From Mycobacteriales bacterium (GTDB lineage Bacteria > Actinomycetota > Actinomycetes > JAFAQI01 > DASSKL01): 64,000 nt of DNA. Positions 6,385-60,066 of this stretch are shown here, piece by piece. The first letter of the stretch is position 1. Every line of letters starts with the position of its first letter. Position numbers and translations under genes: made by a program. The DNA lies in contig DASSKL010000010.1 of assembly GCA_035690485.1 (NCBI GenBank), positions 856 through 64,855 on the forward strand. Direction: 5' to 3'. The notes under the pieces are model-generated. The model worked only from the letters and a program-made list of their open reading frames with translations, searched no databases and was not told the DNA's origin.

Positions 6385-6418
6385 CTGCCCACCATGCCAG
6401 AGCCGGTCGGGCTGCCGG

Positions 6419-7438
6419 TCAGCCGCCGAGCGGGAGAGTCGGCTGGGCCGTCGGCTTCGACTGCAGCGGCTTGGACAGCGTGTCGACGCGGGCGACGACC
6501 TGGTTGGTGTTGGGGTCGTAGCGGCCGAAGCGCGGGTTGATGTGCACGCCGAGCCGCTTGGCGGTCGCGGAGAGCACCTTGGCCTCCAGCGTCGACTGCT
6601 GGTCCTGCAGGTAGGCGCGGCGCAGGTCGGGCTTGGCCTGCGCGAACGTCGTCGTACGCCGCGCGATGACCTTCACCACGTGCCACCCGAACTGGCTGTG
6701 CACCTCGATGATCGATCCGGGCTTGGCCGCGAAGATCGCGTCGGCGAAGGCGGGGACGAACTGCCCGCGCCCGGCGTAGCCGAGCTCGCCGCCGTTAGCC
6801 GCCGAGCCCTGGTCGGTGGAGTACTGCTTGGCCAGCGCGCCGAACGACGCCGGGTCCTTGCGGGCCTCGGCCAGGATCTTGTCGGCGGTCGCCTTGTCCT
6901 TGACCAGGATGTGGGCCGAGCGCACCTGGTCGTAGTCGTCGATGTGCTGCTCGTAGAGCTGGCGCAGCGTGCTGTCGGGCACCTTGACGTCGGCGACCAG
7001 CTTGTCGCCGAGCTTCTGCTGGAGCAGCACGTCCTCGACGAGGCCGCGCAGGTCGCCGGGGGCGAAACCGGACCGCTCCGCCTGCTGCTCGAGCGCCTTC
7101 ATGCCGCCGGCCTGTTGGGCGTAGACCTTCAGCTGCTGGTCGATCTCGCCGTTGGTGACGGTGATGCCGCGCTCCTGGGCGGCGGTGCGCACCACGGCGG
7201 AGCCGACCATCCGGCTGAGCTGGCTGCGCTCGAAGTCGAGCTTGCTGCCGAGCGCCTGGGCCGCCTGCGGGTTTCCCGTGTAGGCGCGGTGGACCATCGA
7301 GGCGAGCTGGTCGACCGAGAACGACGTGTTGCCGACGACGGCCGCCGCGCCGGGGTTCGTGGTGCACCCGGACAGCGCAAGCCCACCGGCGAGGGCCAGG
7401 ACGGCTGCGGCGGTGAGTCGACGGGAGTTGCGGATCAA
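6419..7438 (-). CDS. SurA/PpiC-type peptidyl-prolyl cis-trans isomerase lipoprotein
   Basis: TTG start at 7438 preceded by GAGAGGA; signal peptide with lipobox LALSGC; parvulin domain SAHILVKDKATADKILAEARKDPASFGALAKQYSTDQGSAANGGELGY. Confidence 0.7.
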   Translation of the reverse strand: MIRNSRRLTAAAVLALAGGLALSGCTTNPGAAAVVGNTSFSVDQLASMVHRAYTGNPQAAQALGSKLDFERSQLSRMVGSAVVRTAAQERGITVTNGEIDQQLKVYAQQAGGMKALEQQAERSGFAPGDLRGLVEDVLLQQKLGDKLVADVKVPDSTLRQLYEQHIDDYDQVRSAHILVKDKATADKILAEARKDPASFGALAKQYSTDQGSAANGGELGYAGRGQFVPAFADAIFAAKPGSIIEVHSQFGWHVVKVIARRTTTFAQAKPDLRRAYLQDQQSTLEAKVLSATAKRLGVHINPRFGRYDPNTNQVVARVDTLSKPLQSKPTAQPTLPLGG

Positions 7439-7473: not shown

Positions 7474-11007
<3,534 letters not shown>

Positions 11008-32606: not shown

Positions 32607-32694
32607 ACGGGCGCCAGAGTCCTCGCCGTGCAGACGGACCGGTGGCCTGATTTCAAGATCCCCCCACGCTCGAAACCGGCCCCGGGGGCGCCGG

Positions 32695-32718
32695 CGGGGA
32701 CGTCGGCGGGGACGCCCC
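32695..32718. repeat. Second cluster of two 12-bp CGGGGACGNNNG iterons about 130 bp before the relaxase start
   Basis: cggggacgtcgg cggggacgcccc at 32695-32718. Confidence 0.6.
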
Positions 32719-32845
32719 GAGCTTGCAATGCGCGCATGGATCTCGACCCCGGTGCGCCCACCCGCCGTCCCCGCCCGCCTGCCGCCCCCTCCCCGTCGAC
32801 CCGGGCTACCGCTGCGAGGGGTGGGCGGCGGTGATCTCGGTCGAG

Positions 32846-35701: not shown

Positions 35702-35919
35702 GGCTGCTGACCATCCCCGAAGCGGCCACGGAGCTGCACGTCCCCGAAGGCTGGCTGCGCAAGAAGGTCACCGCTCGCGAAGTGCCCTTCACCCGCCTGG
35801 GCAAGCACGTCCGCTTCACCGACGACCAACTACGCGCCATCGTCATAGCCGGCGAGGTACTACCGATTGTCGTACCCGCCAGGCAAGGCCTCAGCCGGCG
35901 CGCCAGGAAGCTCGCATAA
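35698..35919 (+). CDS. xis: Excisionase/Xis-like HTH_17 DNA-binding protein
   Basis: 73 aa; LTIPEAATELHVPEGWLRKKVTAREVPFTRLGKHVRFTDDQL; ATGA overlap with the relaxase stop. Confidence 0.7.
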   Translation: MRLLTIPEAATELHVPEGWLRKKVTAREVPFTRLGKHVRFTDDQLRAIVIAGEVLPIVVPARQGLSRRARKLA

Positions 35920-35974
35920 CATGCTCGGCCAGTTTGCAGGACCCTGTCGGTTCCTTGAGGGTGCACTCGGAATT

Positions 35975-36008
35975 GGATCCGGACACCACTGTTGCGGTGT
36001 CCGGATCC
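35975..36008. terminator. Bidirectional hairpin terminator between convergent xis and the secreted-protein gene
   Basis: Perfect 13-bp inverted repeat ggatccggacacc-actgttgc-ggtgtccggatcc, 56 nt after the xis stop and 46 nt after the stop of the minus-strand gene. Confidence 0.45.
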
Positions 36009-36053
36009 AATGGCCGGATTGCTACGCCCTACCAGTTGGGTGAGTGTGCACTC

Positions 36054-36902
36054 TCAGATGCTGGCGCACGCATCGCCGCGGTCGTAGTACGGCGACGGCG
36101 TTTCCCACCAGGTCGCGTCCCACACGGTCGAGTAGTTGACTGGGCCGTAGACGACAACGACTTGTTGCCCGTACGTCACGTTCGTGTCAGACGAGTTCGC
36201 GCCTCCGGTTCCTGGGTGACAGGACGTTGCGCTGATTCCTTCGTTGGACACGGACACATGGCCCTGGTCGACCCAAGATCCCAAGTACGTGTAGGTGCCC
36301 TTGATGTAGTTGGATCCGCCGACCAAAGTCGTACCCACGCATATGGTGCCGCTGGACGTAGTGGCAGCACAGGCTGAGCCGACAGGAACAGACGCCGGGG
36401 AAACCTGTGTCGGCGACTGCGTCTCGGACGGGGATGGGCTAGCACTTGCTTGATCCGCAGACGGGCTAGCACTCTCTTGCGGCCCAGACGCGGAAGAGTT
36501 GGAATTCGCTTGCGCCCCCGAGGGCACTGGCACCGACTTCGGATCGCAACTGATCACACCGGCGACGGCCAAGGTCGTTATGTCCGCAGGCATGCCCTTG
36601 ATCCCGCTGGCGCCGCTAACGGGGATGTACTCGAGGTTCTCAAGGTGGCAACCGGAGGGAGCAAGCTCGTCCCATTTCGCGCTTCGCATGCTTGCTTGCT
36701 GGTCGGCTGCCCAGGCTTCCCACGCGCTTCTCGGCGCTGCTGCCGACGGCGCGGCCGGAAGTGGGTTTGCGTCCACGCTGGAAACAGGTTGCCCCGTTGG
36801 CGTCGGAGGCGAACCATCTGCAGCCGCGGGTGCAATGTCTGCGCCTCCCACGAAACCCAACGCGACGGCGAACGTGACTACGAACGACTTGCGACGAGCC
36901 AC
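36054..36902 (-). CDS. Secreted Cys-containing protein of unknown function (two domains joined by a Ser/Pro/Gln-rich linker)
   Basis: GTG start with AAGGGGG RBS; signal peptide VARRKSFVVTFAVALGFVGGADIAPAAA; low-complexity linker SGPQESASPSADQASASPSPSETQSP; C-terminal domain with about 5 Cys; lower-GC codon usage. Confidence 0.5.
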   Translation of the reverse strand: MARRKSFVVTFAVALGFVGGADIAPAAADGSPPTPTGQPVSSVDANPLPAAPSAAAPRSAWEAWAADQQASMRSAKWDELAPSGCHLENLEYIPVSGASGIKGMPADITTLAVAGVISCDPKSVPVPSGAQANSNSSASGPQESASPSADQASASPSPSETQSPTQVSPASVPVGSACAATTSSGTICVGTTLVGGSNYIKGTYTYLGSWVDQGHVSVSNEGISATSCHPGTGGANSSDTNVTYGQQVVVVYGPVNYSTVWDATWWETPSPYYDRGDACASI

Positions 36903-36943
36903 TGCAACCACCCCCTTCTTGTCAACAATTGGACTTAGGTGTC

Positions 36944-38062
36944 TCAACTCGATGGACGAGTCTCTGGCGCGTTCAGCGTGATCGGGCCTGGCAGCGCGGC
37001 AACGGCGATGCTGTCGTCGAGTCCCCATTCCAGTCGGGCACTTCCCTGGCCGGCGGGGACCTCGATTTGCATCGCGAATGTGGCGCTGTCCCCGGCCTTA
37101 ATGCCGTTTGTCTCGTCGCAGTTGAGGCGGTACTGGCCGACGGTGGCGTCAGTTGGCTGGTCGTAGCCGGCACCCATGTATTGGGTGTAGATCGGACAGC
37201 GGTTGAAGATCACGTCCCGATCGGACGGATTGTGGAGGGTAACCGTGTAAGTGACCGTGTCTCCGCTGGTAGCCGCGCGGGGAGCGCTGATCGTGATCAC
37301 CAAGCCGTTCAACTCCGAGGTGGCCGCCGCGGGCGTGGTGAACGCGCTGTACGTGAAGGCCGTATGCCGAAAACCGTTGCACGGAGTGTCGGTCGCAGCG
37401 GGGAAGGCGATTGTCACCTCGCCGCCCCCCGGGGCCGGCACCCGGAAGGCTGTCGCGGTGGCATTGGATTCGCCAGAAGGCATTGGGGGCAACGTGTCGC
37501 ACTCGTCTGAGTAGCTGAACACGATCGCCGCACGCTCCCCAGGCTTTAGGTTTGCCGGCGGGGCGGTGTGCACATGAGGGTCAGCCGTCACGGTCGTCCC
37601 GCTGACCCGACCACCGCCGGTCAGTTCCACGCTTATGTCAGAGGCATAGCCGGACAGCGTGCAGGGCTGGCTGCCACGATTGGTGAACCAGAGCAGAAGG
37701 CGATGATCGTGAACACCAAGGCCCGCGTCGACTGGTTCGGCGCGACCTTGCATTTCCGCGGCGCCGCAGGCTGGATACTCGGCCGAGTTGTCGACTTCTA
37801 CGGGCTGGTTGACCCATGGCGCCGGCTGCGCGCTTCCCATACGGATCGGGACCGGCTCAGTAGAGTGCCCGGCGAGGCTGTAGGTAGAGAGGACGGCGAC
37901 GACGGCGGTCGTCGTGGCCGTCGCCGTTAGAACCGCGACAGCGCGGCGAGAGCGGCGTCGGCGGTCGATACGCCGGTGCAGTTCTTCCAGAAATTCCCCC
38001 TGTACCGCAACGACGGGAACGTCTTCGAAGGCACGAACTAGCTCACGTTCTGCATCGTTCAT
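36944..38062 (-). CDS. Anti-sigma factor with extracytoplasmic DUF4232-like domain
   Basis: ATGA overlap with the sigma gene; N-terminal cytoplasmic segment MNDAERELVRAFEDVPVV..., a single TM (AVAVLTATATTTAVVAVLS), and an ectodomain with HRLLLWFTNRGSQPCTLSGY typical of DUF4232. Confidence 0.55.
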   Translation of the reverse strand: MNDAERELVRAFEDVPVVAVQGEFLEELHRRIDRRRRSRRAVAVLTATATTTAVVAVLSTYSLAGHSTEPVPIRMGSAQPAPWVNQPVEVDNSAEYPACGAAEMQGRAEPVDAGLGVHDHRLLLWFTNRGSQPCTLSGYASDISVELTGGGRVSGTTVTADPHVHTAPPANLKPGERAAIVFSYSDECDTLPPMPSGESNATATAFRVPAPGGGEVTIAFPAATDTPCNGFRHTAFTYSAFTTPAAATSELNGLVITISAPRAATSGDTVTYTVTLHNPSDRDVIFNRCPIYTQYMGAGYDQPTDATVGQYRLNCDETNGIKAGDSATFAMQIEVPAGQGSARLEWGLDDSIAVAALPGPITLNAPETRPSS

Positions 38063-38556
38063 TTCGGTTGCTCCGCTTCCCGCAATGGCGAGCCGAGCCG
38101 TTCTCTTAGCGTGCGCAAGGCCTTGGCCGACTGGCTCTTCACGGTGCCGACGCTGCATCCCAAGGCCGCTGCGGCCTGTTGTTCGGAGTAGTCAGCCACA
38201 TAACGCAGCGCCAACACCGCTCGCTGACGCGGAGGCAAAGCGGCGAGCGCGTCCCACACCTCGAAACTCCGGCCGACCGGCTCATAGAATTGCTCCGGAA
38301 CTACGGCGACCAGGCGTTCCAAGCGGCGACGTCGCCACCAACTGATCCTCTGGTTCACCATGACCTGACGGACGTACCTGGCCGGGTCCCCGCTTGCGAG
38401 CACACGAGACCACCGGGTCCCGACCTGCAACAGCGCTTCCTGCACCAAGTCGTCGGCATGCGCGGAGTTGGCGGTCAGCGCATATGCGAAGCGAGAGAGT
38501 TCCGGCATACGGACACGCACGAACGCGTCGAACGACGCTCGTTCGTCGGCGTCCAC
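38059..38556 (-). CDS. ECF (sigma-70 family group IV) RNA polymerase sigma factor
   Basis: 165 aa; region 2 (ADDLVQEALLQVGTRWSRV...YVRQVMVNQRISWWRR) and region 4 HTH (QRAVLALRYVADYSEQQAAAALGCSVGTVKSQSAKALRTLR). Confidence 0.8.
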   Translation of the reverse strand: MDADERASFDAFVRVRMPELSRFAYALTANSAHADDLVQEALLQVGTRWSRVLASGDPARYVRQVMVNQRISWWRRRRLERLVAVVPEQFYEPVGRSFEVWDALAALPPRQRAVLALRYVADYSEQQAAAALGCSVGTVKSQSAKALRTLRERLGSPLREAEQPK

Positions 38557-38760
38557 GCTTCACCACCTTCCGCCAGTAGCACGCACGAGGAGGTGGAAAG
38601 GTTGCCCGGGCCGACCAGCAGATTGGGCGACAGGGTTGCCGGACCAGGCAAACGTTCCTGAAAGCGACCTCCGTAGTCAGGTGTACGGCCCCCGACTCCG
38701 GGCCGAATCGCCATTGTCAGTCAGACCGGGCATGCTGCGCCCGAACGAGGAATGGCACCC

Positions 38761-40020
38761 CTATGCCGGCTTCTCCTCAAGCACGAGCACCGCCGCCTCG
38801 ACGCTGTCCCCTCCGGTTGCGGTGACCACCTTGCGACCGCCGAGTGCCCGGTCGATGGCGAGGTCGGCTATCTCGTGGGTCTGGAAGAGCAGCCCACCGT
38901 AGACGTCGACGGTGATCTGGATGCTCTTGTGGCCGAGCCGCTTCTGGATCACCGGCAGGGGGACGCCAGCCGAGATCAGCCAGGCGGCGTGCGTGTGCCG
39001 CAGGTCGTGGAACCGCGGCGTCTTCGCCAGTCCTTTGGCCTGCGCGGCCTTGATCGCGCGCTGCCATCCGCCGTACCAGTTGCCGTGCACCCGCCGGCCG
39101 CCGCCGCGGGCGCTGAACACCAGATCGTCCGGGCCTCGACCGGCCACGACGCGGCGCAACGCCTCGACGACGCGCGGGGCCAGGGTGATGCGCCGCCGGG
39201 ACTCGCGCGTCTTCGGCTTGCCGATGTAGGCGACGCCGTGCTGCCCGAGCGCGAACTCGCCCCGGCCGTTGCTCTTCCAAGCCCGGCGGATCGTCAGCAT
39301 CGCCGGTGAGCCGTCGATGTTGAGGTCCTTGACCTTGAGCGCGGTGAGCTCGCCCCAGCGCAGCCCCGTGCCCACGGCGACAGTCAGGAAGTCGCGGTCA
39401 ACCTCGGGCATGCACGAGCGCAGGAGCGCGAACTCCTTCTCGGTGAGGAAGACCTTGTCCTCGTCGTCCTCAGTGTCGTCGTCGGTCGGCGGCAGTTTCA
39501 CCCCTTCGCAGGGGTTGCGGCCGATCAGGCCCTTCTCCACCGCGCTCTTGAGCACGGCCGCCAGCAGGCCGTGGTAGTTGGCGATCGTCTTCGGGCTGGC
39601 GCCGGCCTTGCGCCGGGCGACGATCCAGTCGCGGTCGTCGTCCGACGTCAGGTTCTCGATCGTCGGCTGGCACCGCTTGATCTCGGTGAGCCAGCCGTCG
39701 AGCGACGTCAGCTGCTGGACGTACTTCGTCTGCGTGTCCGGCCCGGCGCTGGTGAGCCGGCGGACGTACGCCGTGCCGAACTCGAGTAACGGGCGCTCCT
39801 CCGCCGGCTCCTCCCACGCCTCACCGAAACCCATGCCCTTGACCCAGCCGTCCGGCCACCGCTGACCGGCGGCGTCGACGAGCGCCGCGAACTTCAGCGC
39901 CGCCCGGCGGTCGGCGAACGTCTCGGACTGCCATGGTGCGCCGCGGCTGCCACCGAGCAGCCACTGCACCTTGTAGGTGCGCTCGCCGGACTTGTGCTTG
40001 CGCGTGACGACGCTCGCCAT
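38761..40020 (-). CDS. int: Tyrosine-type site-specific recombinase / phage integrase
   Basis: ATG 40020 with GGAGG 6 nt upstream; N-terminal MASVVTRKHKSGERTYKVQW AP2-like domain; catalytic region with R...HDLRHTHAAWLISAGVPLPVIQKRLGHKSIQITVDVYGGLL (R, HxxR, Y). Lies directly 3' of tRNA-Ala. Confidence 0.9.
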   Translation of the reverse strand: MASVVTRKHKSGERTYKVQWLLGGSRGAPWQSETFADRRAALKFAALVDAAGQRWPDGWVKGMGFGEAWEEPAEERPLLEFGTAYVRRLTSAGPDTQTKYVQQLTSLDGWLTEIKRCQPTIENLTSDDDRDWIVARRKAGASPKTIANYHGLLAAVLKSAVEKGLIGRNPCEGVKLPPTDDDTEDDEDKVFLTEKEFALLRSCMPEVDRDFLTVAVGTGLRWGELTALKVKDLNIDGSPAMLTIRRAWKSNGRGEFALGQHGVAYIGKPKTRESRRRITLAPRVVEALRRVVAGRGPDDLVFSARGGGRRVHGNWYGGWQRAIKAAQAKGLAKTPRFHDLRHTHAAWLISAGVPLPVIQKRLGHKSIQITVDVYGGLLFQTHEIADLAIDRALGGRKVVTATGGDSVEAAVLVLEEKPA

Positions 40021-40111
40021 GACCGCCTCCAAGATCAACCGTTATGCCTCGGTTATGCCTCGGGAGCGACCGTAGAGCGGCCCTGCGACAGTTTTCGCAG
40101 GTCAGAGCCTT

Positions 40112-40144
40112 CGTGCGGGTGGTGGAGCTGAGGGGATTTGAACC
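40112..40144. repeat. att direct repeat (tRNA-proximal copy) overlapping the 3' 25 nt of tRNA-Ala
   Basis: Identical 33-mer to 30091-30123. Confidence 0.85.
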
Positions 40145-40196
40145 CCTGACCCCCTCGATGCGAACGAGGTGCGCTACCGGACTGCGCCACAGCCCC
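40120..40196 (-). tRNA. tRNA-Ala (anticodon CGC)
   Basis: 77-nt cloverleaf GGGGCUGUGGCGCAGUCCGGUAGCGCACCUCGUUCGCAUCGAGGGGGUCAGGGGUUCAAAUCCCCUCAGCUCCACCA; G3:U70 Ala identity pair; anticodon loop UUCGCAU; encoded CCA. Confidence 0.9.
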
Positions 40197-52575: not shown

Positions 52576-53067
52576 CTAACCGGCGAAGACGATGCGGGCG
52601 TCGGCCTGCTGCGTCGGGTCGGGTGTCGGCTGGCTGACGTTGATCAGGCACGGCTGGGTCGCGCTGCAGACGATGTTGTGCGTGCCGAACGGGCCTTTCT
52701 TGACCGTGTAGTCGGCCTGCACCGTGCCGGTGCCGTCGGCGGTCGCGGGCACGACGGCGGTGATGTCGCAGTCGCCCTGGCCGGTCTTGCTCCCCTTGTC
52801 GCCGCACTCGGCGACGATGTAGGTCGCTCCGGGGGTGAAGCCGGTGCCGGTGACGTGCACGGCCTGCCCGTCGTGCAGTCCCTTGGCCGGTTGCACGGTG
52901 ACGTGCGGCTTGCCCGGGTGAGGCGAGGCGGTCGGAGGGGCGGTCGTGGGCGGCGCGACTTTCGTCGCCGGGTGCGCGGTCGGCGGCAGCACGACCAGCT
53001 CCTGCCCGCCCGTGCCGCACCCGGCGGCCACGGCGACGAGCACACCGGCGGCGAGGACACGGACCAC
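52576..53067 (-). CDS. Lipoprotein of unknown function
   Basis: GTG 53067 with GGAGG 7 nt upstream; lipobox LVAVAAGCG; Cys-containing C-terminal domain (AECGDKGSKTGQGDCDITA...CSATQPC). Confidence 0.5.
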   Translation of the reverse strand: MVRVLAAGVLVAVAAGCGTGGQELVVLPPTAHPATKVAPPTTAPPTASPHPGKPHVTVQPAKGLHDGQAVHVTGTGFTPGATYIVAECGDKGSKTGQGDCDITAVVPATADGTGTVQADYTVKKGPFGTHNIVCSATQPCLINVSQPTPDPTQQADARIVFAG

Positions 53068-53129
53068 GTGCACGCCTCCACGGTGCCACGTGCGGCGGGC
53101 CGGCGACCCGCCTTTGACAACGACCTGCC

Positions 53130-53285
53130 GTCGTGGTCCGCTGTAGCCGCAGTCGTCACGGACAGGGGAAGCCGGTCGAAATCCGGCGCTGACCCGCAAC
53201 CGTAGGCCTCCGGGTGGACTCCCGGGAGCGAGCCGGAACACCTGGCGGTGACGAGGGCTCCCTGACATCCGTCGAGGTTCGCGGG
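53130..53285 (+). promoter_or_regulatory. Putative cobalamin (adenosylcobalamin) riboswitch
   Basis: acAGGGGAAGCCGGTCGAAATCCGGCGCTGACCCGCAACCGTAGG matches the conserved AdoCbl riboswitch core (AGGGAA..CCGGTGAAAATCCGG..GCTGCCCCCGCAACTGTAAG); a downstream GAGCCGGAACACCTGGCGG is a degenerate B12-box-like element; about 120 nt upstream of the first gene of the cluster. Confidence 0.55.
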
Positions 53286-53402
53286 GCGGAGCCCGGGCCG
53301 TGCGCCCGTGACCGCCCCCTGTCGCCGTCCGGCGACGGGGGGTTTGTCGGTTCGGGGGTGGGTCCGGCGACGCGCCGCGATCTCCGAACCGAAAGGCCAC
53401 CG

Positions 53403-54668
53403 GTGTCTCTCGTCACCCGCGCCGCGACCGGCGTCACGCTCGCCGGCCTGCTCGCCGCCCCGCTCTGGGCCGCTCCGGCCTACGCCGCCACCCCGGCGCC
53501 GACGACCGGCGCGTCCACCACGGACCCCGCCCGGGCCGCAGCCGGGTGGCTCGCCGGGCAGCTGACCGGGCCGCAGGCCGACCACCTGACCTCGTCGTAC
53601 GTCGATCAGAACGGCGCCACGCAGACCTACGCCGACCAGGGCCTGACCGCCGACGCGGTGCTGTCCTTCGACGCGGCCGGGGTCGCGCAGGACGCCGCGA
53701 AGCGGGCGACCACCTGGCTCGCGACCCAGGTCGACGCGTATGCCGGCACCGCGCCGAACTACTACCCCGGTTCGCTCGCCAAGCTGATCCTCGTCGCGGT
53801 CGCGCAGGGCGAGGATCCGCACGCCTTCGGCAACACCGACCTGGTCAAGGCGCTGCAGGGCGAGGAGGCGTCGGACGGCCTCTACACCGACCCGGACACG
53901 CAGAACGGCTACCAGAGCGTGGTGACCCAGGCGCTCGCACTGGTCGCCCTCTCACGGACCGACACCAAGCCCGACGCCAAGGCGGTCTCCTGGCTGGCCG
54001 GGCAGCAGTGCGCCGACGGCGGCTTCCAGACCGACGTCCGCACCAGCACGAGCGCTCCCTGCACGAGCGACGCCGACACCACGTCGTTCGCCGTGCAGGC
54101 GCTCGCGGCCACGCGCACCGACGCCAGCAAGGCGGTCGCCTGGCTGACCGCGCACCGCAACTCCGACAACGGCTTCGGTACGCCGAGCAGCAACGCCAAC
54201 TCCACCGCGATCGCCGTCCAGGCGCTGCTCGCCGCGGGCGGCGACCCGTCGGCGTCCATCGCCTACCTGCGCGGCCTCCAGGTGGGGTGCGCGGGCACGA
54301 CCGCCCAGCGGGGCGCGGTGACGTTCAGCGGCACCTTCGGCGCGACCGCCGTGCGCGCCACCTCACAGGCCGCGCAGGCGCTGGCCGGCAAGACGCTCGC
54401 CCAGATCACCGAGTCGGGCGCGGGCGCGGCAGCGCCGACCCTGGCCTGCGCCGCGACGGCGACCCCCACGCCGACGCCCACCGCCACGCGCACCGTCGCA
54501 CCACTGACCGACGGCCACGTCCAGCGGCCTGCTCCCCTCGCGAGCTCCGGCACCGCGGAGCTGCCGCGCACCGGCAGCAGCGCGCCGGTCGTGCCGCTCG
54601 TGGCCGCCGCGCTGGCGGCGCTGGCCATCGGCGCAGTGCTCCTGCGATGGGGCCGGCGCACGGCCTGA
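53403..54668 (+). CDS. LPxTG-anchored surface protein with prenyltransferase/squalene-cyclase-like alpha/alpha-toroid repeats
   Basis: GTG start; signal peptide; repeated units (QQCADGGFQ, HRNSDNGFG, QNGYQSVVTQALALVAL); C-terminal sortase signal LPRTG + hydrophobic segment + RWGRRTA. Confidence 0.65.
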   Translation: MSLVTRAATGVTLAGLLAAPLWAAPAYAATPAPTTGASTTDPARAAAGWLAGQLTGPQADHLTSSYVDQNGATQTYADQGLTADAVLSFDAAGVAQDAAKRATTWLATQVDAYAGTAPNYYPGSLAKLILVAVAQGEDPHAFGNTDLVKALQGEEASDGLYTDPDTQNGYQSVVTQALALVALSRTDTKPDAKAVSWLAGQQCADGGFQTDVRTSTSAPCTSDADTTSFAVQALAATRTDASKAVAWLTAHRNSDNGFGTPSSNANSTAIAVQALLAAGGDPSASIAYLRGLQVGCAGTTAQRGAVTFSGTFGATAVRATSQAAQALAGKTLAQITESGAGAAAPTLACAATATPTPTPTATRTVAPLTDGHVQRPAPLASSGTAELPRTGSSAPVVPLVAAALAALAIGAVLLRWGRRTA

Positions 54669-54669
54669 C

Positions 54670-55524
54670 ATGGCAACGACGCGCGCCCGCAGATGGTGGG
54701 TGCCGGCGCTCCTGGTGACGGTGGCGCCGGCACTCGCCGGGCTGCTGCCCGCGGTGCCGAGCAGCGCGGCGAGGCAGATCTGCGTGGCCGTCGTCGTCGA
54801 CTTCCGGACGCTCGGCGGCAGCGTCGCATCGACCTGCGCGAAAGTGCCCGACGGCACGACCGGCACGCAGGTGCTCAAGGCCGCCGGGCACACGATGACG
54901 TTCCGCAGCGACGGGCTGATCTGCACCATCGACGGGCAGCCGGCACAGGGATGCAGCGCGACCGACAGCTCGCACTACTGGGCCTACTGGCACCGCCCGG
55001 CCGGCTCCAGCACCTGGCAGTACAGCTCCGAGGGGTCCGGCACCTACCAGCCGGCCAACAACTCCAGCGACGGCTGGGTCTGGCAGAACGGCGGCCCGGA
55101 GGGCAGCGACCCGCCGCCGAACATCCCGGAGTCCCAGATCTGCCCGCCCGCCGCGACCGCGACGCCGCCGGCTGCGCCCGCCCGGCCGGCACCCGCGCCC
55201 GCTCCGGCCGCGACGGCGGCCGCCGCGCCGGTCCCCGCCACGGGCGGCGGGTCCGCGCCCGGCGTCGCGACGGCAGGCGCCACCGGCCGGCCGCCCGCGA
55301 CCCGCGCGCCGGCAGCCGCAAAGAGCTCGCCGGCCGTGACCGCCACGTCCGCGGCACCGGCCGGCGGGAGCACGGCCACGCCCCCGCCGGATCCGGCGGG
55401 GCGCACGCGGGCCGCGGCGCACTCCGGCGGGAAGCCCGGCGGCGGCTTCCCGACCGGGCTGGTCGTCGGCGTCGTGGTGGCCGTCGCGCTCGGTGGCGCC
55501 GCCTTGCTGCGGACCCGGCGATGA
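54670..55524 (+). CDS. Secreted DUF4430-like domain protein with a C-terminal Pro/Ala-rich segment and TM anchor
   Basis: Signal peptide; DUF4430-like core VLKAAGHTMTFRSDGLICTIDGQP...HYWAYWH...DGWVWQNGG; C-terminal TM LVVGVVVAVALGGAALL-RTRR. Confidence 0.55.
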   Translation: MATTRARRWWVPALLVTVAPALAGLLPAVPSSAARQICVAVVVDFRTLGGSVASTCAKVPDGTTGTQVLKAAGHTMTFRSDGLICTIDGQPAQGCSATDSSHYWAYWHRPAGSSTWQYSSEGSGTYQPANNSSDGWVWQNGGPEGSDPPPNIPESQICPPAATATPPAAPARPAPAPAPAATAAAAPVPATGGGSAPGVATAGATGRPPATRAPAAAKSSPAVTATSAAPAGGSTATPPPDPAGRTRAAAHSGGKPGGGFPTGLVVGVVVAVALGGAALLRTRR

Positions 55525-56639
55525 CGACCGCGGCGCACCCCCTCGCGCAGGCCCGGCTGCCGCGGCTGCTGCACCCCGCCGCGTGGTGGCTGTGGGCCAT
55601 CGGTCTCGGCACCGCGGCGAGCCGCACCACGAACCCGCTGCTGCTGCTGCTCGCCATGGCGGCCGCCGGCTACGTGGTCGCTGCCCGGCGCACCGACGCT
55701 CCGTGGGCCCGCTCCTACGCGGCGTTCGTACGGCTCGCGCTGACCGTGCTGCTGATCAGGGTGCTGCTGCAGATCCTCTTCGGCGGCGGGGTGCCGGGAC
55801 ACACGCTGGTGCGGCTGCCGCAGGTGCCGTTGCCGTCATCGTTCGCCGGGCTACGCATCGGCGGCGACGTGACCGTCGAGGGCACCGTGGCGGCGGCGTA
55901 CGACGGGCTGCGCCTGGCCGCGATCCTGGTCTGCGTCGGCGCCGCCAACGCGCTCGCGAGCCCGGCCCGCCTGCTGCGGGTGCTCCCGGCCGCGATCTAC
56001 GAGATCGGGGTGGCGGTGACGGTCGCGCTGACGTTCGCCCCGCAGGCCGTGGTCGCGGCCGGCCGGGTCCGCGCCGCGCGACGGCTTCGGGGACGGACGA
56101 TCCGCGGGCTGTCCGGGCTGCGTGGCCTGGTGGTGCCGGTGCTGGAGGACGCCCTGGAGCGCTCGCTCGACCTCGCGGCGGCGATGGACACCCGCGGCTT
56201 CGGGCGCCGCGCGGGCGTGCCGGCCCGCGAGCGCCGGCTCACGGCGGCGCTGACGGTGAGCGGGCTTCTCGCGGTGTGCGCGAGCACCTACGGCCTGCTC
56301 GACTCCTCCGCGCCGACCGCGCTCGGCCTGCCGCTGCTCGCCGTCGGCGCCGCACTCGCGGCGGCCGGGCTGGCTCTCGCCGGGCGGCGTACCCCCCGGA
56401 CCCGCTACCGGCCGGACCCCTGGGCGCTGCCGGAGTGGCTGGTCGTGCTCGGCGGGGTGCTGGCGGCCGCCGCGGTCTTCGCCACCGACCCGGGCGCCCT
56501 CGACCCGTCGACGTCGCCACTGGTCGCCCCGACCCTGCCGTTGCTGCCGGTGGCGGGGCTCGCCTGCGCGCTGCTGCCGGCCTGGGCGGCGCCCGAGGTG
56601 CCCGCGGCGATGCGGACCCGCCGGGCGGTGGCCGCGTGA
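55521..56639 (+). CDS. ecfT: Energy-coupling factor transporter transmembrane component EcfT (CbiQ family)
   Basis: ATGA overlap with the upstream gene; polytopic protein with ...EDALERSLDLAAAMDTRGF, the characteristic EcfT/CbiQ coupling helix. Confidence 0.75.
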   Translation: MTTAAHPLAQARLPRLLHPAAWWLWAIGLGTAASRTTNPLLLLLAMAAAGYVVAARRTDAPWARSYAAFVRLALTVLLIRVLLQILFGGGVPGHTLVRLPQVPLPSSFAGLRIGGDVTVEGTVAAAYDGLRLAAILVCVGAANALASPARLLRVLPAAIYEIGVAVTVALTFAPQAVVAAGRVRAARRLRGRTIRGLSGLRGLVVPVLEDALERSLDLAAAMDTRGFGRRAGVPARERRLTAALTVSGLLAVCASTYGLLDSSAPTALGLPLLAVGAALAAAGLALAGRRTPRTRYRPDPWALPEWLVVLGGVLAAAAVFATDPGALDPSTSPLVAPTLPLLPVAGLACALLPAWAAPEVPAAMRTRRAVAA

Positions 56640-58240
56640 TCCGCTTCGAGCACGTCTCGGTGACCTACCCGGGAGCCGGTGACCCGGTGCTGCGGGGGGT
56701 CGACCTCACGATCCCCGAGGGAGAGCTCTGCCTGGTGGTCGGTCGCACCGGGTCGGGCAAGTCGACGCTGCTGCGCTGCGTCTCCGGCCTGGTGCCGCAC
56801 TTCACCGGCGGCCTGCTCGCGGGCCGCGTGACCGTCGACGGCCGCGACACCCGCGAGCACCCGCCGCGCGAGCTGGCCGACACCGTGGGTTCGGTCTTGC
56901 AGGACCCGCTCGCGGGCTTCGTCACCGACACCGTCGAGGACGAGCTCGCCTACAGCCTCGAGTCGCTGGGCGTCGCCCCAGACGTCATGCGCCGCAGGGT
57001 CGAGGAGACCCTCGACCTGATGGGGCTGGTCGACCTTCGCGACCGGCCGCTGCTCGCGCTGTCTGCCGGGCAGCAGCAGCGGGTGGCGATCGGTTCGGTG
57101 TTGACCAGCGGTCCTCGGGTGCTCGTGCTCGACGAGCCGACGTCCGCCCTCGACCCGGCCGCTGCCGAGGAGGTGCTCGCGACCCTGACGCGCCTCGTCC
57201 ACGACCTCGGCCTCACCGTGCTCCTGGCCGAGCACAGGCTCGAGCGCGTCGTGCAGTACGCCGACCGCCTCGTGCTCGTCCCGGGCGGCGGCGCACCGCT
57301 CGTCGACGGCCCCCCGGCAGCGGTGCTCGCGACCTCGCCGGTCGCACCACCCGTGGTCGAGCTCGGCCGCCTCGCGGGCTGGTCCCCGCTGCCGCTCTCG
57401 ATCCGCGACGCGCGCCGGCGCAGCGCCGAGCTGCGCGACCGGCTGGCCGGCCGCGTGCCGGTCCCCGCGCCGGCGTCGGCGCAGGGGCCCGTGGGCGAGG
57501 CCGGTGACCTCGTCGTCCGCTACGGCGCGACGGTCGCGTTGCGGGGCGTCTCCCTCGTCGTACGCCGGGGCGAGGTCGTTGCGCTCATGGGTCGCAACGG
57601 GGCGGGCAAGTCGACGCTGCTCGGCGCACTGGTGGGCATGCGGGCGCCCGCGTCCGGCACGGCCCGGGTGGGTGGCGCCGACCCGGCCCGGCTGCGGCCG
57701 CGCGACCTGCTGCGACACGTCGGCCTGGTCCCGCAGCAACCCGGCGACCTCCTCTACGCCGAGACCGTGGCGGGCGAGTGTGCCGACGCCGATCGTGACG
57801 GCGGAGCGGCGCCGGGCACCGCGTGGCGGCTGCTGACCGAGCTGCTGCCCGACGCCGACGGCGACCTGCACCCGCGTGACCTGTCCGAGGGTGGCCGGCT
57901 CGCGCTCGCCCTGGCCGTCGTGCTGGCCGCCGCCCCGCCGCTCGTGCTGCTCGACGAGCCGACCAGGGGCCTCGACTACCCCGCCAAGCGGATGCTGGCC
58001 GCCGCGCTGCGCCGGCTCGCCGCCGCCGGTCACGGCGTGCTGCTCGCGACCCACGACGTCGAGCTCGTCGCCGAGCTGGCCGACCGCGTCGTGATGCTCG
58101 CCGAGGGCGAGGTGGTCACCGACGGCCCGACCCGCGAGGTGGTCACCGCGTCGCCGGCGTTCGCGCCGCAGGTCGCGAAGGTGCTGGCGCCGCTGCCCAT
58201 GCTGACCGTCACCGACGTGCGTGAGGCGCTGGCCGGATGA
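56636..58240 (+). CDS. ecfA: Fused duplicated ECF transporter ATPase (EcfA-EcfA')
   Basis: GTGA overlap; two ABC domains (GRTGSGKST + LSAGQQQRVAIGSVL; GRNGAGKST + LSEGGRLALALAVVL). Confidence 0.85.
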   Translation: MIRFEHVSVTYPGAGDPVLRGVDLTIPEGELCLVVGRTGSGKSTLLRCVSGLVPHFTGGLLAGRVTVDGRDTREHPPRELADTVGSVLQDPLAGFVTDTVEDELAYSLESLGVAPDVMRRRVEETLDLMGLVDLRDRPLLALSAGQQQRVAIGSVLTSGPRVLVLDEPTSALDPAAAEEVLATLTRLVHDLGLTVLLAEHRLERVVQYADRLVLVPGGGAPLVDGPPAAVLATSPVAPPVVELGRLAGWSPLPLSIRDARRRSAELRDRLAGRVPVPAPASAQGPVGEAGDLVVRYGATVALRGVSLVVRRGEVVALMGRNGAGKSTLLGALVGMRAPASGTARVGGADPARLRPRDLLRHVGLVPQQPGDLLYAETVAGECADADRDGGAAPGTAWRLLTELLPDADGDLHPRDLSEGGRLALALAVVLAAAPPLVLLDEPTRGLDYPAKRMLAAALRRLAAAGHGVLLATHDVELVAELADRVVMLAEGEVVTDGPTREVVTASPAFAPQVAKVLAPLPMLTVTDVREALAG

Positions 58241-59214
58241 CGACTACCGCCACCTCCGCGACGATGCCGACGGCATCCGGACGGGCCGCGTTGGCCCTGC
58301 GGCCCCGGTCAGCCCTGGCGGTCACCGCGGTGACGCTTGCGGGACTGGCCGGCTTCACCTGGCCGCTGTTCGCCGGCGGCCGGCTGGCCGGCTCGCACGC
58401 GGTCGACGCGCCGTGGCTGTTCGTGGCGCTGCTGCCCCTGCTGCTCGCCGTCGTCTTCGCCGAGGTGTCCGACGGCGGCCTCGACGTGAAGGGGGTCGCG
58501 CTGCTCGGGGTGCTCGCCGCCTGCGGGGCGGCCCTGCGCCCGCTCGGCGGCGGGGCGACCGGGTTCCAGCCGATGTTCTTCCTGCTGCTGCCCGCCGGAC
58601 GCGTGTTCGGGCGCGGGTTCGGGTTCGTGCTGGGCGCGGTGACGATGTTCGCCGGCGCGCTGCTGACCGGTGGCGTCGGGCCGTGGCTGCCCTTCGAGAT
58701 GCTCGGGGCGGCCTGGGTTGGTTTCGGTGCGGGCTGCCTGCCGCGGGCTCGCGGCCGCTGGGAGATCGCGCTGCTCGCGGCGTACGGCGCGGTGGCCGGT
58801 CTGCTCTACGGGCTGCTGCTCAACCTGTGGTTCTGGCCGTTCGCGCACGACCTGCCGCCCGCGATCGCATTCGTGCCCGGCGGCTCGCTGGCCACCAACC
58901 TGCACCACTGGGTGCACCACGACGTGGCCACGTCGCTGGGCTTCGACGTGCCCCGGGCGCTCACCACGGCCGCCCTCGTGGTGATCGCGGGTCGTCCCGT
59001 GCTCCTGGCCCTGCGACGCGCGGCGCGGCGAGCGCTCTTCGAGGGTTCAGGGAAGGGGGTGGCCGTAGACACCCCAGTGCAGGAGGAAGAAGACGGCCGC
59101 GGCGACCGTGCCGGCCGCCGGGAGCGTGAGGACCCAGGCGATCACGATGTTGCCGGCCACGCCCCACCGCACCGCCGAGAACCGCTTGGTCGCGCCCACG
59201 CCGAGAATCGATGA
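58237..59214 (+). CDS. ECF transporter substrate-specific (S) component; C-terminal extent uncertain
   Basis: ATGA overlap with ecfA; six-TM small integral membrane protein. The last roughly 55 aa overlap the convergent pitA gene by 167 nt and look non-coding. Confidence 0.5.
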   Translation: MTTTATSATMPTASGRAALALRPRSALAVTAVTLAGLAGFTWPLFAGGRLAGSHAVDAPWLFVALLPLLLAVVFAEVSDGGLDVKGVALLGVLAACGAALRPLGGGATGFQPMFFLLLPAGRVFGRGFGFVLGAVTMFAGALLTGGVGPWLPFEMLGAAWVGFGAGCLPRARGRWEIALLAAYGAVAGLLYGLLLNLWFWPFAHDLPPAIAFVPGGSLATNLHHWVHHDVATSLGFDVPRALTTAALVVIAGRPVLLALRRAARRALFEGSGKGVAVDTPVQEEEDGRGDRAGRREREDPGDHDVAGHAPPHRREPLGRAHAENR

Positions 59215-60066
59215 CGTGATCACGTGGGTGGTCGACAGCGGTACGCCGAAGTGCGCGGCCGACAGGAGCACACTGGCGGCCGTGGTCTCCGCCGCGAAGC
59301 CACGTGACGGGTCGAGCTGGATGATCCTCCGCCCCAGCGTCCGCATGATCCGCCAGCCGCCGGAGTAGGTGCCGAGACTGATCGCGCCGGCCGCCAGGCC
59401 GATCACCCACCAGGGCACGTGGAAGTGCTCACGCGACACGTGGCCGGTCGCAACGAGCGCGAAGGTGATCACGCCCATCGTCTTCTGCGCGTCCTGGGTG
59501 CCGTGGCTGAACGACATCGCCGCCGCCGACAGGGTCTGGACATGGCGGAAGCCGCGGTTGAGCTTGCTCGGCGAGCCCCGGTGCACGATCCAGAGCAGGG
59601 CCAGGTGGAAGAGGTAGCCCACGACGATTCCGACGATCGGTGAGAGCACCATCGGGATGATCACCTTGTCGATCACGCCGGTCCACTTGACCGTCGACGA
59701 CGCGGCGATCGCGGCGCCGACGAGGCCGCCGATCAGCGCGTGCGACGACGACGAGGGCAGGCCGAAGTACCAGGTGATGAGGTTCCAGGTGATCGCCCCG
59801 ACCAGGGCCGCCGTCGCCAGCACGATCGCCCCGCCGGGGTCGACGGGGATCTCGATGATTCCCTTGCCGATCGTCGCCGCGACCCCCGTCGCGAGCAGGG
59901 CGCCGGCCAGGTTGAGCACTGCCGCCATCCCGAGTGCCACCCGGGGCGTCAGCGCCCGGGTCGACACCGAGGTCGCGATGGCGTTGGCCGCGTCGTGGAA
60001 ACCGTTGGTGAAGTCGAATCCGAGAGCAATGACGATGAGCAGTGCCAGCCCGATGTCGAGCGCCAT
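59047..60066 (-). CDS. pitA: Low-affinity inorganic phosphate transporter (PiT family)
   Basis: 339 aa; FDFTNGFHDAANAIATSV motif repeated (HGTQDAQKTMGVI); 10-12 TMs. Confidence 0.9.
   Translation of the reverse strand: MALDIGLALLIVIALGFDFTNGFHDAANAIATSVSTRALTPRVALGMAAVLNLAGALLATGVAATIGKGIIEIPVDPGGAIVLATAALVGAITWNLITWYFGLPSSSSHALIGGLVGAAIAASSTVKWTGVIDKVIIPMVLSPIVGIVVGYLFHLALLWIVHRGSPSKLNRGFRHVQTLSAAAMSFSHGTQDAQKTMGVITFALVATGHVSREHFHVPWWVIGLAAGAISLGTYSGGWRIMRTLGRRIIQLDPSRGFAAETTAASVLLSAAHFGVPLSTTHVITSSILGVGATKRFSAVRWGVAGNIVIAWVLTLPAAGTVAAAVFFLLHWGVYGHPLP

Follow-up and report, generated by a model that had tools for sequence, protein, structure and literature searches.

A five-gene operon in the window (the whole 64,000-nt stretch of DNA that was analysed) probably encodes a scavenging system for corrinoids, the vitamin B12 family, which would be repressed when B12 is abundant. 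A sequence-only reading of the same DNA had proposed that the first two gene products act as a transcobalamin-like receptor for corrinoids and pass them to an ECF importer under riboswitch control. This proposal is in part well supported computationally: the riboswitch, the fold of the second protein, the fusions in relatives and the linkage of the genes argue for it, while the details on DUF4430, CbrT, AdoCbl and novelty were not sustained. Three sources supplied the gene coordinates: the ORF list, gene calls made independently on the identical public contig, and the sequence itself as read directly. Downstream of the riboswitch lie five co-directional, translationally coupled genes, all on the + strand. 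Gene 1 (g1; 53403, a GTG, to 54668) encodes a secreted alpha/alpha-toroid protein of 421 aa and is preceded by a Shine-Dalgarno-like GAAAGG (53391-53396, + strand) read from the sequence 6 nt 5' of the GTG. Gene 2 (g2; 54670-55524) encodes a secreted protein with an SLBB/transcobalamin-beta-like domain, a stalk and a C-terminal transmembrane (TM) anchor. It is followed by g3 (55521-56639), an ECF T component of the CbiQ family (372 aa; ATGA overlap with g2), g4 (56636-58240), a fused ECF A-A' ATPase (534 aa; GTGA overlap with g3), and g5 (58237-59214), an ECF S component (325 aa; ATGA overlap with g4). The gene calls and the direct reading thus agreed with the tightly overlapping, co-directional cluster reported earlier, and the spacing given there for the g1 stop (TGA, 54666-54668) and the g2 start (ATG, 54670) was exact.

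The strong riboswitch core noticed in the letters was confirmed by a covariance-model scan. Using cmscan, a cobalamin riboswitch aptamer (RF00174) was located at 53121-53263 on the + strand, above the gathering threshold (35.5 bits versus 31.5, E = 2.3e-5) and spanning the full model (1-189). The match includes the core quoted in the first reading as well as the B12 box, and it is the sole riboswitch in the window. The distance to g1, previously put at about 120 nt, was roughly right; measured from the aptamer end it is 139 nt. The P6 extension of the aptamer has only 17 nt where the RF00174 model has 62 positions, and the label AdoCbl first attached to it is therefore not supported. At 53314-53350 (+ strand) we found a candidate expression platform, a 13-bp G+C-rich hairpin (53314-53343) followed by UUUGU, which resembles a terminator. 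RNA folding gave -32.1 kcal/mol and a z of -3.1 for this hairpin, with 0 of 200 shuffled sequences folding equally well; a strict terminator scan made no call at 53314-53350 because the U tract is short.

We also compared 26 related actinobacterial loci, and 25 of them showed the riboswitch-toroid-SLBB linkage. Among 20 genome loci, 11 had an RF00174 match above the gathering threshold 5' of the g1 homologue, as did all three loci from cultured genera (Kitasatospora, Actinosynnema and Catellatospora, the last with two divergent copies). With a family-specific nhmmer profile, the riboswitch was detected ahead of this homologue at 22 of the 23 genome loci scanned, a count that includes 11 loci outside the profile-building set and whose single miss is a contig beginning 136 nt upstream. 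The order g1-g2-T-AA'-S is kept across Actinomycetota and, since it recurs in related loci with homologous riboswitches, the arrangement is not due to chance. Riboswitch, g1 and g2 were also found in relatives lacking the transporter; therefore the g1/g2 pair, and not just the transporter, is under B12 control. Moreover, relatives exist in which g1-type and g2-type parts are fused, in transcobalamin order. The fusions in these families are SLBB-toroid-SLBB (P0276, whose toroid is 32% identical to that of g1, E = 2e-24), toroid-SLBB-SLBB-CWB2x3 (P0281) and SLBB-SLBB-toroid (P0365). Such Rosetta-stone fusions count in favour of the toroid and SLBB domains working together.

The SLBB domain of g2 occupies residues 33-160 (nt 54766-55149) and is followed by a stalk of about 100 residues, rich in Ala, Pro, Gly and Thr, and by the TM anchor (residues ~256-283). 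The protein had been described as a DUF4430 protein with a TM anchor. The YWAYW...DGWVW motifs and the TM helix are indeed present, but the Pfam DUF4430 HMM did not match g2 even at E = 10. By sequence, g2 is a distant member of the SCO2322 family (PF28005), separate from DUF4430: its relatives carry PF28005 'SCO2322', and it scores 35.6 bits against NCBIfam SCO2322_fam (NF040672), for which the curated cutoff is 85. The AlphaFold2 model of the domain has a pLDDT above 95. When it was searched against the PDB with Foldseek, the top 17 matches were the beta domains of transcobalamin, haptocorrin and intrinsic factor (E down to 3.8e-5; TM 0.67-0.71 to the isolated transcobalamin beta domain), as the proposed transcobalamin beta-domain fold would have it, and the next match was the bacterial DUF4430 structure 3u7z. 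The modelled order, strand-strand-helix-hairpin-strand, agrees with the beta-hairpin insert by which the transcobalamin-like SLBB clade is defined (PMC1796856). A significant sequence match between g2 and transcobalamin-family chains was not found, and the modelled kinship with the transcobalamin beta domain would be one of fold only.

The substrate may be either a complete cobamide or a cobinamide-type precursor. As a sub-variant of corrinoid scavenging, the operon might serve a B12 producer in salvage, importing B12 building blocks or unfinished corrinoids (cobinamide, cobyric acid/cobyrinate diamide, alpha-ribazole) rather than finished cobalamin, which we consider unlikely. B12 synthesis is common among Actinobacteria (review PMC8123684), metabolic reconstructions annotate CbrT-type ECF systems as precursor importers, and haptocorrin-like binders, represented among the fold matches by PDB 4kkj, accept cobinamide. 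However, the sequence offers nothing to tell the substrates apart, and no cob/cbi salvage gene was found, either among the ten large ORFs scanned in the 64-kb window or among the genes called on a 21-kb stretch around the operon.

Profile matches agreed with the assignment of genes 3-5 as EcfT, fused EcfAA' and an S component, in the case of g5 weakly (ECF_trnsprt, PF12822, 24.7 bits with a cutoff of 30.7). Conservation in g5 extends over ~270 aa but not over the final ~55 aa, which overlap a convergent PHO4 gene by 168 nt; its more than 6300 relatives, 55-80% identical, carry the source name 'ECF transporter S component'. No relative of the S profile was found in the PDB, CbrT and every solved S component included, and the identification of the importer as ECF-CbrT is thus not upheld. 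Assignment of g5 to a non-corrinoid S family, which had been named as a refuting outcome, did not emerge either: the sole hit was FolT (E = 0.069; 12.9 bits versus a cutoff of 60). The importer is a dedicated (group I) ECF transporter, with S, T and fused A-A' in one operon. ECF-CbrT of Lactobacillus delbrueckii (PMC5997447) is likewise an ECF-type ABC importer tied to B12, but its energising module is of the shared (group II) kind and no surface binder goes with it, whereas here the T/A-A' module is dedicated and no solved S component is detectably similar in sequence to g5.

The same five-gene split layout is found in Lactobacillus sakei, where lsa1836-1840 encode ECF S, A-A' and T components and two separate proteins resembling the transcobalamin beta and alpha domains, the alpha-like partner also being prenyltransferase-like in HHpred (bioRxiv 10.1101/864751). 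This preprint, the sole experimental paper on an analogous operon, ties it to heme accumulation and argues for heme, not B12, and reports an S component without the Cbl-binding residues of CbrT; g5 is likewise unrelated to CbrT by sequence. Nevertheless, we regard it as improbable that the present architecture takes up another tetrapyrrole such as heme. Essentially all related loci, those with g1 and g2 only included, have a cobalamin riboswitch ahead of the g1 homologue, and such control is sensible for a corrinoid, not for heme; neither a heme-related gene nor a heme-related regulator adjoins the operon in the gene calls. The L. sakei operon also differs in belonging to a Firmicute, in having no reported cobalamin riboswitch and in its anchoring, which that paper describes as lipoprotein-type, compared with LPRTG/TM here. 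Split layout and wall anchoring, earlier called unusual, had both been described before (PMC1796856; bioRxiv 10.1101/864751), and an LPxTG or LAxTG signal is present in roughly half of the relatives of g1.

The g1 protein has a signal peptide ending in AYA, four invariant Cys and the sorting signal LPRTG (residues 387-391, nt 54561-54575) followed by a hydrophobic TM segment and RWGRRTA, in line with the wall-anchored protein with prenyltransferase/cyclase-like repeats that had been read from it. In a domain search the Prenyltrans and SQHop_cyclase_C matches were both sub-threshold. Judged by sequence, g1 is a distant member of the catalogued SCO2321 family (NCBIfam NF053823; 158 versus a curated cutoff of 300). 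As a transcobalamin alpha-like half it has the toroid fold, but folds of the terpene-cyclase and prenyltransferase type resemble this toroid more closely than the transcobalamin alpha domain does. There is accordingly a slim chance that g1 is an extracellular enzyme, a class II terpene-cyclase-like or glycan-acting toroid with an indirect link to B12, for example through corrinoid remodelling or wall modification in place of passive binding. Structurally it comes closest to drimenyl diphosphate synthase, squalene-hopene cyclases and GH76/GH8-type hydrolases, squalene-hopene cyclase repeats are matched by its profile (E = 4e-23), and its invariant Asp227 lies in a DxD[TASG]TA motif aligned with the cyclase DxDDTA. 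Against a true terpene cyclase, an intact DxDD motif (DxDD[TS]A) is absent from g1 and from all 44 relatives (0/44), the third Asp being the one that is missing. In addition, g1 is a single toroid, whereas class II cyclases have a beta-gamma didomain; prenyl diphosphate substrates would not be expected in the wall, where this secreted protein is anchored; and relatives fuse the toroid to SLBB domains.

The g3 product matched CbiQ (PF02361, 31.4 bits, cutoff 25), and g4 contains two ABC_tran stretches (PF00005, E = 4.9e-52), scoring 237 against TIGR01166 cbiO, above the cutoff of 211.8, and 281 and 276 bits against TIGR04521 and TIGR04520, under their equivalog cutoffs. Although these CbiQ and cbiO matches, and the fact that B12 riboswitches often govern cobalt uptake, favour a cobalt (or nickel) importer of the CbiMNQO type with g1 and g2 as unrelated wall proteins, this is highly improbable, as neither CbiM nor CbiN was matched, the S component is of a different family with its weak ECF_trnsprt match, translational coupling ties g1 and g2 to the transporter, their types are fused in relatives and riboswitch-controlled even without a transporter, and the modelled fold of g2 is a B12-binding fold.

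Counted against corrinoid scavenging were the greater closeness of g1 to cyclases and prenyltransferases together with its invariant Asp, an S component untied to CbrT or to any characterised S family, the fold-level link of g2, the case made for heme in L. sakei and the poor U tract. In transcobalamin, a single B12 molecule is clamped between the toroid and the SLBB domain. For the scavenging system we envisage that cobalamin bound to the aptamer would let the hairpin at 53314-53343 end transcription, or would occlude the ribosome-binding site; when B12 is scarce, the five genes would be co-produced, each start codon overlapping or adjoining the stop codon before it. Sortase would link the g1 toroid to peptidoglycan through LPRTG, and the g2 SLBB domain would sit on its ~100-residue Ala/Pro-rich stalk above the membrane anchor. 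By analogy with transcobalamin, the two proteins may hold a corrinoid between them within the zone of the wall, after which the stalk-tethered SLBB domain would pass it on to the S component in the membrane, with ATP-driven import by the T/A-A' module.

Compared with animal transcobalamin, intrinsic factor and haptocorrin, the putative binder is split into two separately anchored polypeptides without detectable sequence similarity to these carriers; delivery would be to an ECF importer instead of an endocytosis receptor, and the toroid is nearer to terpene cyclases. Proteins of the BtuG/BtuH type in Bacteroides sit on the cell surface and bind corrinoids with high affinity ahead of a transporter; they are encoded in B12-riboswitch-controlled loci. 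The analogy is functional only, since these are outer-membrane lipoproteins with an unrelated beta-propeller fold that feed the TonB-dependent BtuB. In Streptomyces coelicolor, SCO2321 and SCO2322 (NF053823, NF040672; PF28005) represent the families of which g1 and g2 are distant members, with sub-cutoff scores; no paper on the function of SCO2321-2325 was found in the literature searched, and the database names carry none.

Burroughs, Balaji, Iyer and Aravind predicted in 2007 a transcobalamin-like SLBB clade of surface proteins scavenging B12 or its precursors, seen in low-GC Gram-positives, planctomycetes and euryarchaea (PMC1796856). Those systems share with the present operon a secreted or Gram-positive-anchored SLBB domain and an alpha/alpha toroid, genes for a CbiO-like ATPase and a CbiQ-like membrane protein encoded alongside, and paralogous second SLBB proteins in the same neighbourhood. 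That such a logic had already been predicted for Firmicutes counts in favour of the scavenging reading. Their main example is a fused toroid-SLBB protein, whereas here the SLBB protein is of the SCO2322 family and unrecognised by the DUF4430 model; a riboswitch link has 0 occurrences in that paper. The host here is actinobacterial, and Actinobacteria are absent from the range reported for the clade. The operon is thus most likely an actinobacterial member of the kind of system predicted in 2007 for other Gram-positive bacteria.

Three elements passed their gathering thresholds in an Rfam scan of the whole window: a single cobalamin riboswitch and a pair of tRNAs. The riboswitch (RF00174, 53121-53263, + strand) scored 35.5 bits against a gathering threshold of 31.5 (E = 2.3e-5), and its alignment ran over the full model (positions 1-189), taking in the core GGGAAGCCGGU...GCUG..CCCGCAACCGUA and the B12 box GAGCCGGAACACCUGGCGG. 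The covariance model thus confirms the element and the core described in the sequence-only reading. The label 'AdoCbl' attached to it there cannot be asserted, because the P6 peripheral extension is very short, 17 nt compared with 62 model positions. The start of the first gene, g1, lies 139 nt downstream of the aptamer end on the same strand. Between the two is a 13-bp, G+C-rich hairpin followed by UUUGU (53314-53343, + strand), with a folding energy of -32.1 kcal/mol (z = -3.1); none of 200 shuffled sequences folded equally well. This hairpin is likely the expression platform of the riboswitch. Its U tract is too short for a strict terminator scan to call it, and we therefore infer the platform role. 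Scans of 52900-53500 for consensus promoters and terminators found nothing. The TTGACA at 53114-53119 was considered as a promoter and rejected; it has no acceptable -10 box and its start would fall inside the aptamer, and consequently no promoter is claimed.

Gene limits were established from the ORF list, by direct reading and from genes called independently on a metagenome contig in the public databases that encodes identical proteins. Five co-directional genes follow the riboswitch on the + strand: g1, from a GTG at 53403 with GAAAGG in front of it to 54668; g2 at 54670-55524; g3 at 55521-56639; g4 at 56636-58240; and g5 at 58237-59214. The junctions are as previously described. The TGA stop of g1 (54666-54668) is one base ahead of the ATG of g2, and the tight overlaps after g2 are formed by three successive junctions, ATGA, GTGA and ATGA, g4 being tied to g3 and g5 through overlapping stop and start codons. 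The five genes are tightly co-translated, and their linkage is conserved.

We used 23 loci with g1 relatives from one-genome-per-species contigs, all of them from Actinomycetota. The order g1-g2-T-AA'-S is retained wherever the sequence suffices. The g1 and g2 genes also occur alone, with no adjacent ECF genes, in three Mycobacteriales MAGs (L004, L005 and L006) and in Kitasatospora (L027), where g1 and a short g2 are the only genes behind the riboswitch. In 11 of the 20 loci scanned, RF00174 reached its gathering threshold ahead of the g1 homologue. An nhmmer riboswitch profile built from 12 validated elements detected an element upstream of g1, on the same strand, in 22 of the 23 loci, 11 of which were outside the training set (E from 3e-27 to 5e-12); the one locus missed is a contig that starts 136 nt before the match. 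Every g1-like gene of three cultured genera, fetched separately, has RF00174 above gathering. Apart from Kitasatospora these are Actinosynnema sp. CS-041913 (L028), with a six-gene operon, and Catellatospora sp. TT07R-123 (L029), with two divergent operons, each behind its own riboswitch, one containing the ECF genes and the other the pair alone. Since the riboswitch also precedes g1-g2 units that have no transporter, the pair itself, and not just the transporter, is under B12 control. The near-universal presence of a cobalamin riboswitch before the actinobacterial pair is the strongest available argument for corrinoid handling. The Catellatospora arrangement suggests paralogous binder pairs, one anchored and the other possibly soluble.

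Several other features of these loci were recorded. The genes after g2 in L006 are convergent and unrelated, and from their translations they look like a glycine-cleavage T protein and a shikimate kinase. The Actinosynnema operon has an extra gene of 268 aa without a Pfam match (8721-9527) between the SLBB and CbiQ genes. At 6365-6674 of the Catellatospora locus two cobalamin riboswitches on opposite strands face away from each other within ~300 nt, and the second unit there encodes a toroid and a short SLBB protein of 157 aa.

The product of g1 has 421 aa and a signal peptide with the end AYA. Its C terminus has the layout of an LPXTG sorting signal, with LPRTG at residues 387-391, a hydrophobic segment at 390-418 and a positively charged RWGRRTA tail; TIGR01167 gave 15.0 bits, just below the cutoff of 15.9. 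Sortase anchoring had been regarded as an unusual feature, a view that does not hold for the family, since roughly one in two g1 relatives carries an LPxTG or LAxTG signal; the remainder have none. Between signal peptide and sorting signal is a single toroid of ~310 residues. The Pfam models SQHop_cyclase_C, Prenyltrans and TED all matched below threshold. Against the NCBIfam equivalog 'SCO2321 family membrane protein' (NF053823) g1 scored 157.9 bits with a cutoff of 300, and judged by this score it is a distant relative of that family and not an equivalog.

A 44-sequence g1 profile matched squalene-hopene-cyclase-type repeats in the PDB at E = 4e-23, with no transcobalamin chain among its matches. 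The AlphaFold2 model of g1 has a pLDDT of 87.7, reaching 97-99 in the toroid blocks, and as modelled g1 has the alpha6/alpha6 toroid fold that the alpha domain of transcobalamin also adopts. In a Foldseek search with this model class II terpene cyclases came out on top (E = 4.5e-6), and transcobalamin entries did not appear until rank 29 (E = 4.5e-4). Judged by its fold only, g1 cannot be tied to transcobalamin in particular, and neither by sequence nor as a structural match ahead of other toroids was g1 identified as the alpha domain of eukaryotic transcobalamin (TC), intrinsic factor or haptocorrin. The Foldseek alignments span only part of cyclases of 470-630 residues, and g1 has one toroid only in place of the beta-gamma didomain of class II cyclases. 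An intact catalytic Asp-rich motif had been named as evidence that g1 is a true cyclase; DxDD[TS]A is present in none of the 44 family members. The motif at that place reads (D/E)-V-D-(T/A/S/G)-T-A, in which D227 and T229 alone are invariant among the 44. The family also has four invariant cysteines.

The product of g2 (284 aa) consists of a signal peptide, a conserved domain of ~125 residues, a stalk of ~100 residues (35 Ala, 21 Pro, 14 Gly and 12 Thr) and a C-terminal TM helix. Computation shows two exported proteins, one a toroid with a sortase signal and the other a transcobalamin-beta-like domain that a long stalk connects to its membrane anchor. By eye, the g2 signal peptide (54670-54720) starts MATTRARRWWVPALL and has a twin-arginine context, RRWW. 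This context could direct g2 to Tat instead of Sec export, a route that would be odd given an apo-binder.

The motifs YWAYW and DGWVW, cited earlier as a DUF4430 signature, are present in g2. The assignment to DUF4430 itself fails; Pfam PF14478 is silent even at E = 10, on the whole protein and on the isolated domain. Run at E = 10 on the g2 relatives and the fused homologues, the same model found none except one relative, P0030, which was marginal (E = 0.013, 16.3 bits against a cutoff of 23.8). The NCBIfam SCO2322 family (NF040672) matched g2 below threshold, at 35.6 bits with a cutoff of 85. A newer Pfam family named SCO2322, PF28005, is precomputed on 28 of 35 g2 relatives, with none recorded for the g2 of the window. 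An exhaustive search with a profile of the g2 domain yielded 5254 cluster representatives at E <= 1e-3. PDB matches of the full-length g2 profile were discarded, as they were low-complexity Pro/Ala-rich chains only.

Sequence bridges from g2 to DUF4430 or transcobalamin were sought with Pfam at E = 10, phmmer, two PDB profile searches and a low-GC fused homologue, and none was found. The link between g2 and transcobalamin is therefore structural and made on a predicted model. The AF2 model of the domain has a pLDDT of 95-98. The top 17 Foldseek matches in the PDB were all TC, haptocorrin or intrinsic-factor chains, with E down to 3.8e-5, and TM scores normalised to the isolated human TC beta domain (5np4 and 5no0) were 0.67-0.71. 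The next match was 3u7z, a small bacterial protein which we take to be a DUF4430 member, and after it came a sharp fall to unrelated ubiquitin-like folds. The elements of the model follow the order E36-44, E52-60, H65-71, a hairpin E76-78/E84-87, E102-109 and E132-140. This modelled order of strand, strand, helix and hairpin fits the beta-hairpin insert that is diagnostic of the transcobalamin-like SLBB clade defined by Burroughs, Balaji, Iyer and Aravind in 2007 (PMC1796856). The g2 protein shares further traits with that clade: it is exported, TM-anchored, encoded beside a toroid and CbiO/CbiQ-type genes, and toroid-fused in relatives. On this structural link we consider the g2 domain a predicted transcobalamin-beta-like SLBB domain.

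Multidomain proteins in which a g1-type toroid is fused to g2-type domains are included among the best matches of the g2-domain profile. P0276 has the order SLBB-toroid-SLBB, with a toroid 32% identical to g1 (E = 2e-24); P0281 is toroid-SLBB-SLBB followed by three CWB2 wall-binding repeats; and P0365 is SLBB-SLBB-toroid. The domain order of transcobalamin is thus present among them. These Rosetta-stone fusions provide the best evidence that g1 and g2 act jointly. P0017 (492 aa) was rejected as a further toroid-SLBB fusion and regarded as an assembly artefact, its contig being a frameshift-ridden long-read assembly with fragmented genes.

The remaining three genes encode the transporter. The product of g3 matches CbiQ (PF02361) above cutoff, at 31.4 bits versus 25. 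Two ABC_tran stretches are present in g4, which exceeds the cutoff of TIGR01166 cbiO (237 versus 211.8) and falls below those of the ECF_ATPase equivalogs (281 and 276 bits versus 330 and 315). The g5 protein, with about 6-7 hydrophobic segments, matched the generic S-component family PF12822 weakly (24.7 bits versus 30.7); precomputed annotation assigns PF12822 to its close relatives, which their sources call 'ECF transporter S component'. The g5 family is actinobacterial, well conserved and very large, with >6300 matches at 55-80% identity. B12-riboswitch control of a dedicated (group I) ECF importer, with g5 as its probable S component, is the result for this part of the operon.

Identity with ECF-CbrT had been suggested for the transporter. 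The structure of ECF-CbrT is in the PDB, and g5 matched no solved chain, the searches at E <= 10 with the single sequence or a 22-sequence profile giving chance matches only. S components diverge past sequence recognition, and so the missing CbrT match does not exclude the same function. NCBIfam assigned no S family to g5. A match to a non-corrinoid S family would have spoken against a corrinoid substrate; FolT was the only one to appear, at an insignificant level (E = 0.069, 12.9 bits versus 60). The g5 ORF extends ~55 codons beyond the family-conserved region, and its tail overlaps the 3' end of a convergent PHO4/Pit phosphate transporter gene (59047-60066, - strand) by 168 nt (59047-59214). 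This long form is kept in close relatives (82-99% identical), and most of the family is 260-290 aa in length.

We consider it probable, though well short of certain, that g1-g5 serve in corrinoid capture and uptake. At low B12 the operon would be switched on, and the toroid linked to the wall and the SLBB protein held on its stalk would clamp a corrinoid between them, like the two domains of transcobalamin, and the tethered SLBB partner would then hand it to the S component for import by the T/A-A' module. At high B12 the riboswitch would terminate transcription at the 53314-53343 hairpin or block initiation. The heterodimer clamp of g1 and g2, drawn by analogy with transcobalamin, is held with less confidence than corrinoid uptake overall. 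The core of the sequence-only interpretation is accordingly supported, while several of its particulars, such as DUF4430, CbrT, the AdoCbl class and anchoring as an unusual trait, were wrong, overstated or not supported.

The substrate may be a precursor instead of finished cobalamin, and scavenging of B12 or its precursors is the role proposed for the clade in PMC1796856. Heme uptake has been claimed for an analogous operon of L. sakei, the one such operon studied by experiment (preprint 10.1101/864751); for the system described here it is disfavoured by the linkage of the loci to cobalamin riboswitches. Cobalt uptake is also disfavoured, since CbiM/N are absent and riboswitch-controlled g1-g2 pairs occur without a transporter. 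An enzymatic role for g1 is disfavoured by its degenerate motif, its single domain, its export and its fusion to SLBB in relatives.

Elsewhere in the window, housekeeping and mobile-element genes account for the ten largest coding ORFs, none of which is a cob/cbi gene or encodes a B12-dependent enzyme. No sortase was seen among these ORFs or among the genes called in the 21-kb stretch around the operon (L024). A conserved actinobacterial housekeeping neighbourhood occupies 373-31994 and includes enolase, MazG, Mfd/TRCF, a GlmU-like protein, an ABC-F ATPase, tRNA-Gln, an RpfB-like protein (DUF348-G5-transglycosylase), methionyl-tRNA synthetase and a protein O-mannosyltransferase. It is followed by a TrwC-type relaxase that includes a helicase domain (32651-35701, + strand) and a tyrosine integrase (38761-40041, - strand) that directly adjoins tRNA-Ala(CGC) (40120-40196, - strand). 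The region 32651-40196 is a probable integrated mobile element, laid out like the integrative conjugative or mobilisable elements of actinomycetes. Divergent from the riboswitch, a gene at 52576-53067 (- strand) encodes a 163-aa secreted protein matching Pfam Neocarzinostat (PF00960), the enediyne-chromoprotein apoprotein family; no enediyne biosynthesis genes were seen nearby.

The idea of transcobalamin-like B12 scavenging by bacteria is not new. Burroughs et al. (PMC1796856) described a clade with signal peptides, Gram-positive anchors and alpha/alpha-toroid fusions in either order, with paralogous SLBB proteins in the same operons and with linked CbiO-like and CbiQ-like genes. The split layout is also found in L. 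sakei, whose operon, like that of the window, is a five-gene ECF unit with the TC-alpha-like and TC-beta-like parts as separate proteins (10.1101/864751). What is new here is the occurrence in Actinobacteria, a lineage missing from those that Burroughs et al. give for the clade, an SLBB domain outside DUF4430, with its relatives in the function-less families SCO2321 and SCO2322/PF28005, and the near-universal cobalamin riboswitch. A literature search found no demonstration of B12 binding by the bacterial transcobalamin-like proteins predicted in 2007, and nothing relevant on SCO2321-2325 or on the combination of riboswitch, prenyltransferase and ECF genes.

The SCO2321/SCO2322-type families have thousands of representatives, Streptomyces-group genera included. 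To our knowledge, high-affinity B12 capture at the Gram-positive surface is poorly understood, and we know of no surface binder for the characterised importers ECF-CbrT and mycobacterial BacA. It is an evenly balanced proposal that the SCO2321/SCO2322-type pair forms a two-part transcobalamin, tethered to wall and membrane, and is the main high-affinity corrinoid receptor of Actinomycetota, missed until now because its SLBB domain escapes DUF4430, and that the toroid-SLBB clamp that holds B12 in animals was invented long ago by bacteria and occurs both split and fused. The actinobacterial pair offers a clean, widespread test case for the old prediction of bacterial transcobalamin-like B12 binders. 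If confirmed, the reading would give functional names to SCO2321 and SCO2322/PF28005, large families listed as of unknown function, and likewise to the very large family of the S component. Soil Actinomycetota would gain a recognised route of B12 uptake that matters for corrinoid cross-feeding, and there would be implications for the proposal that animal B12 carriers originated in bacteria.
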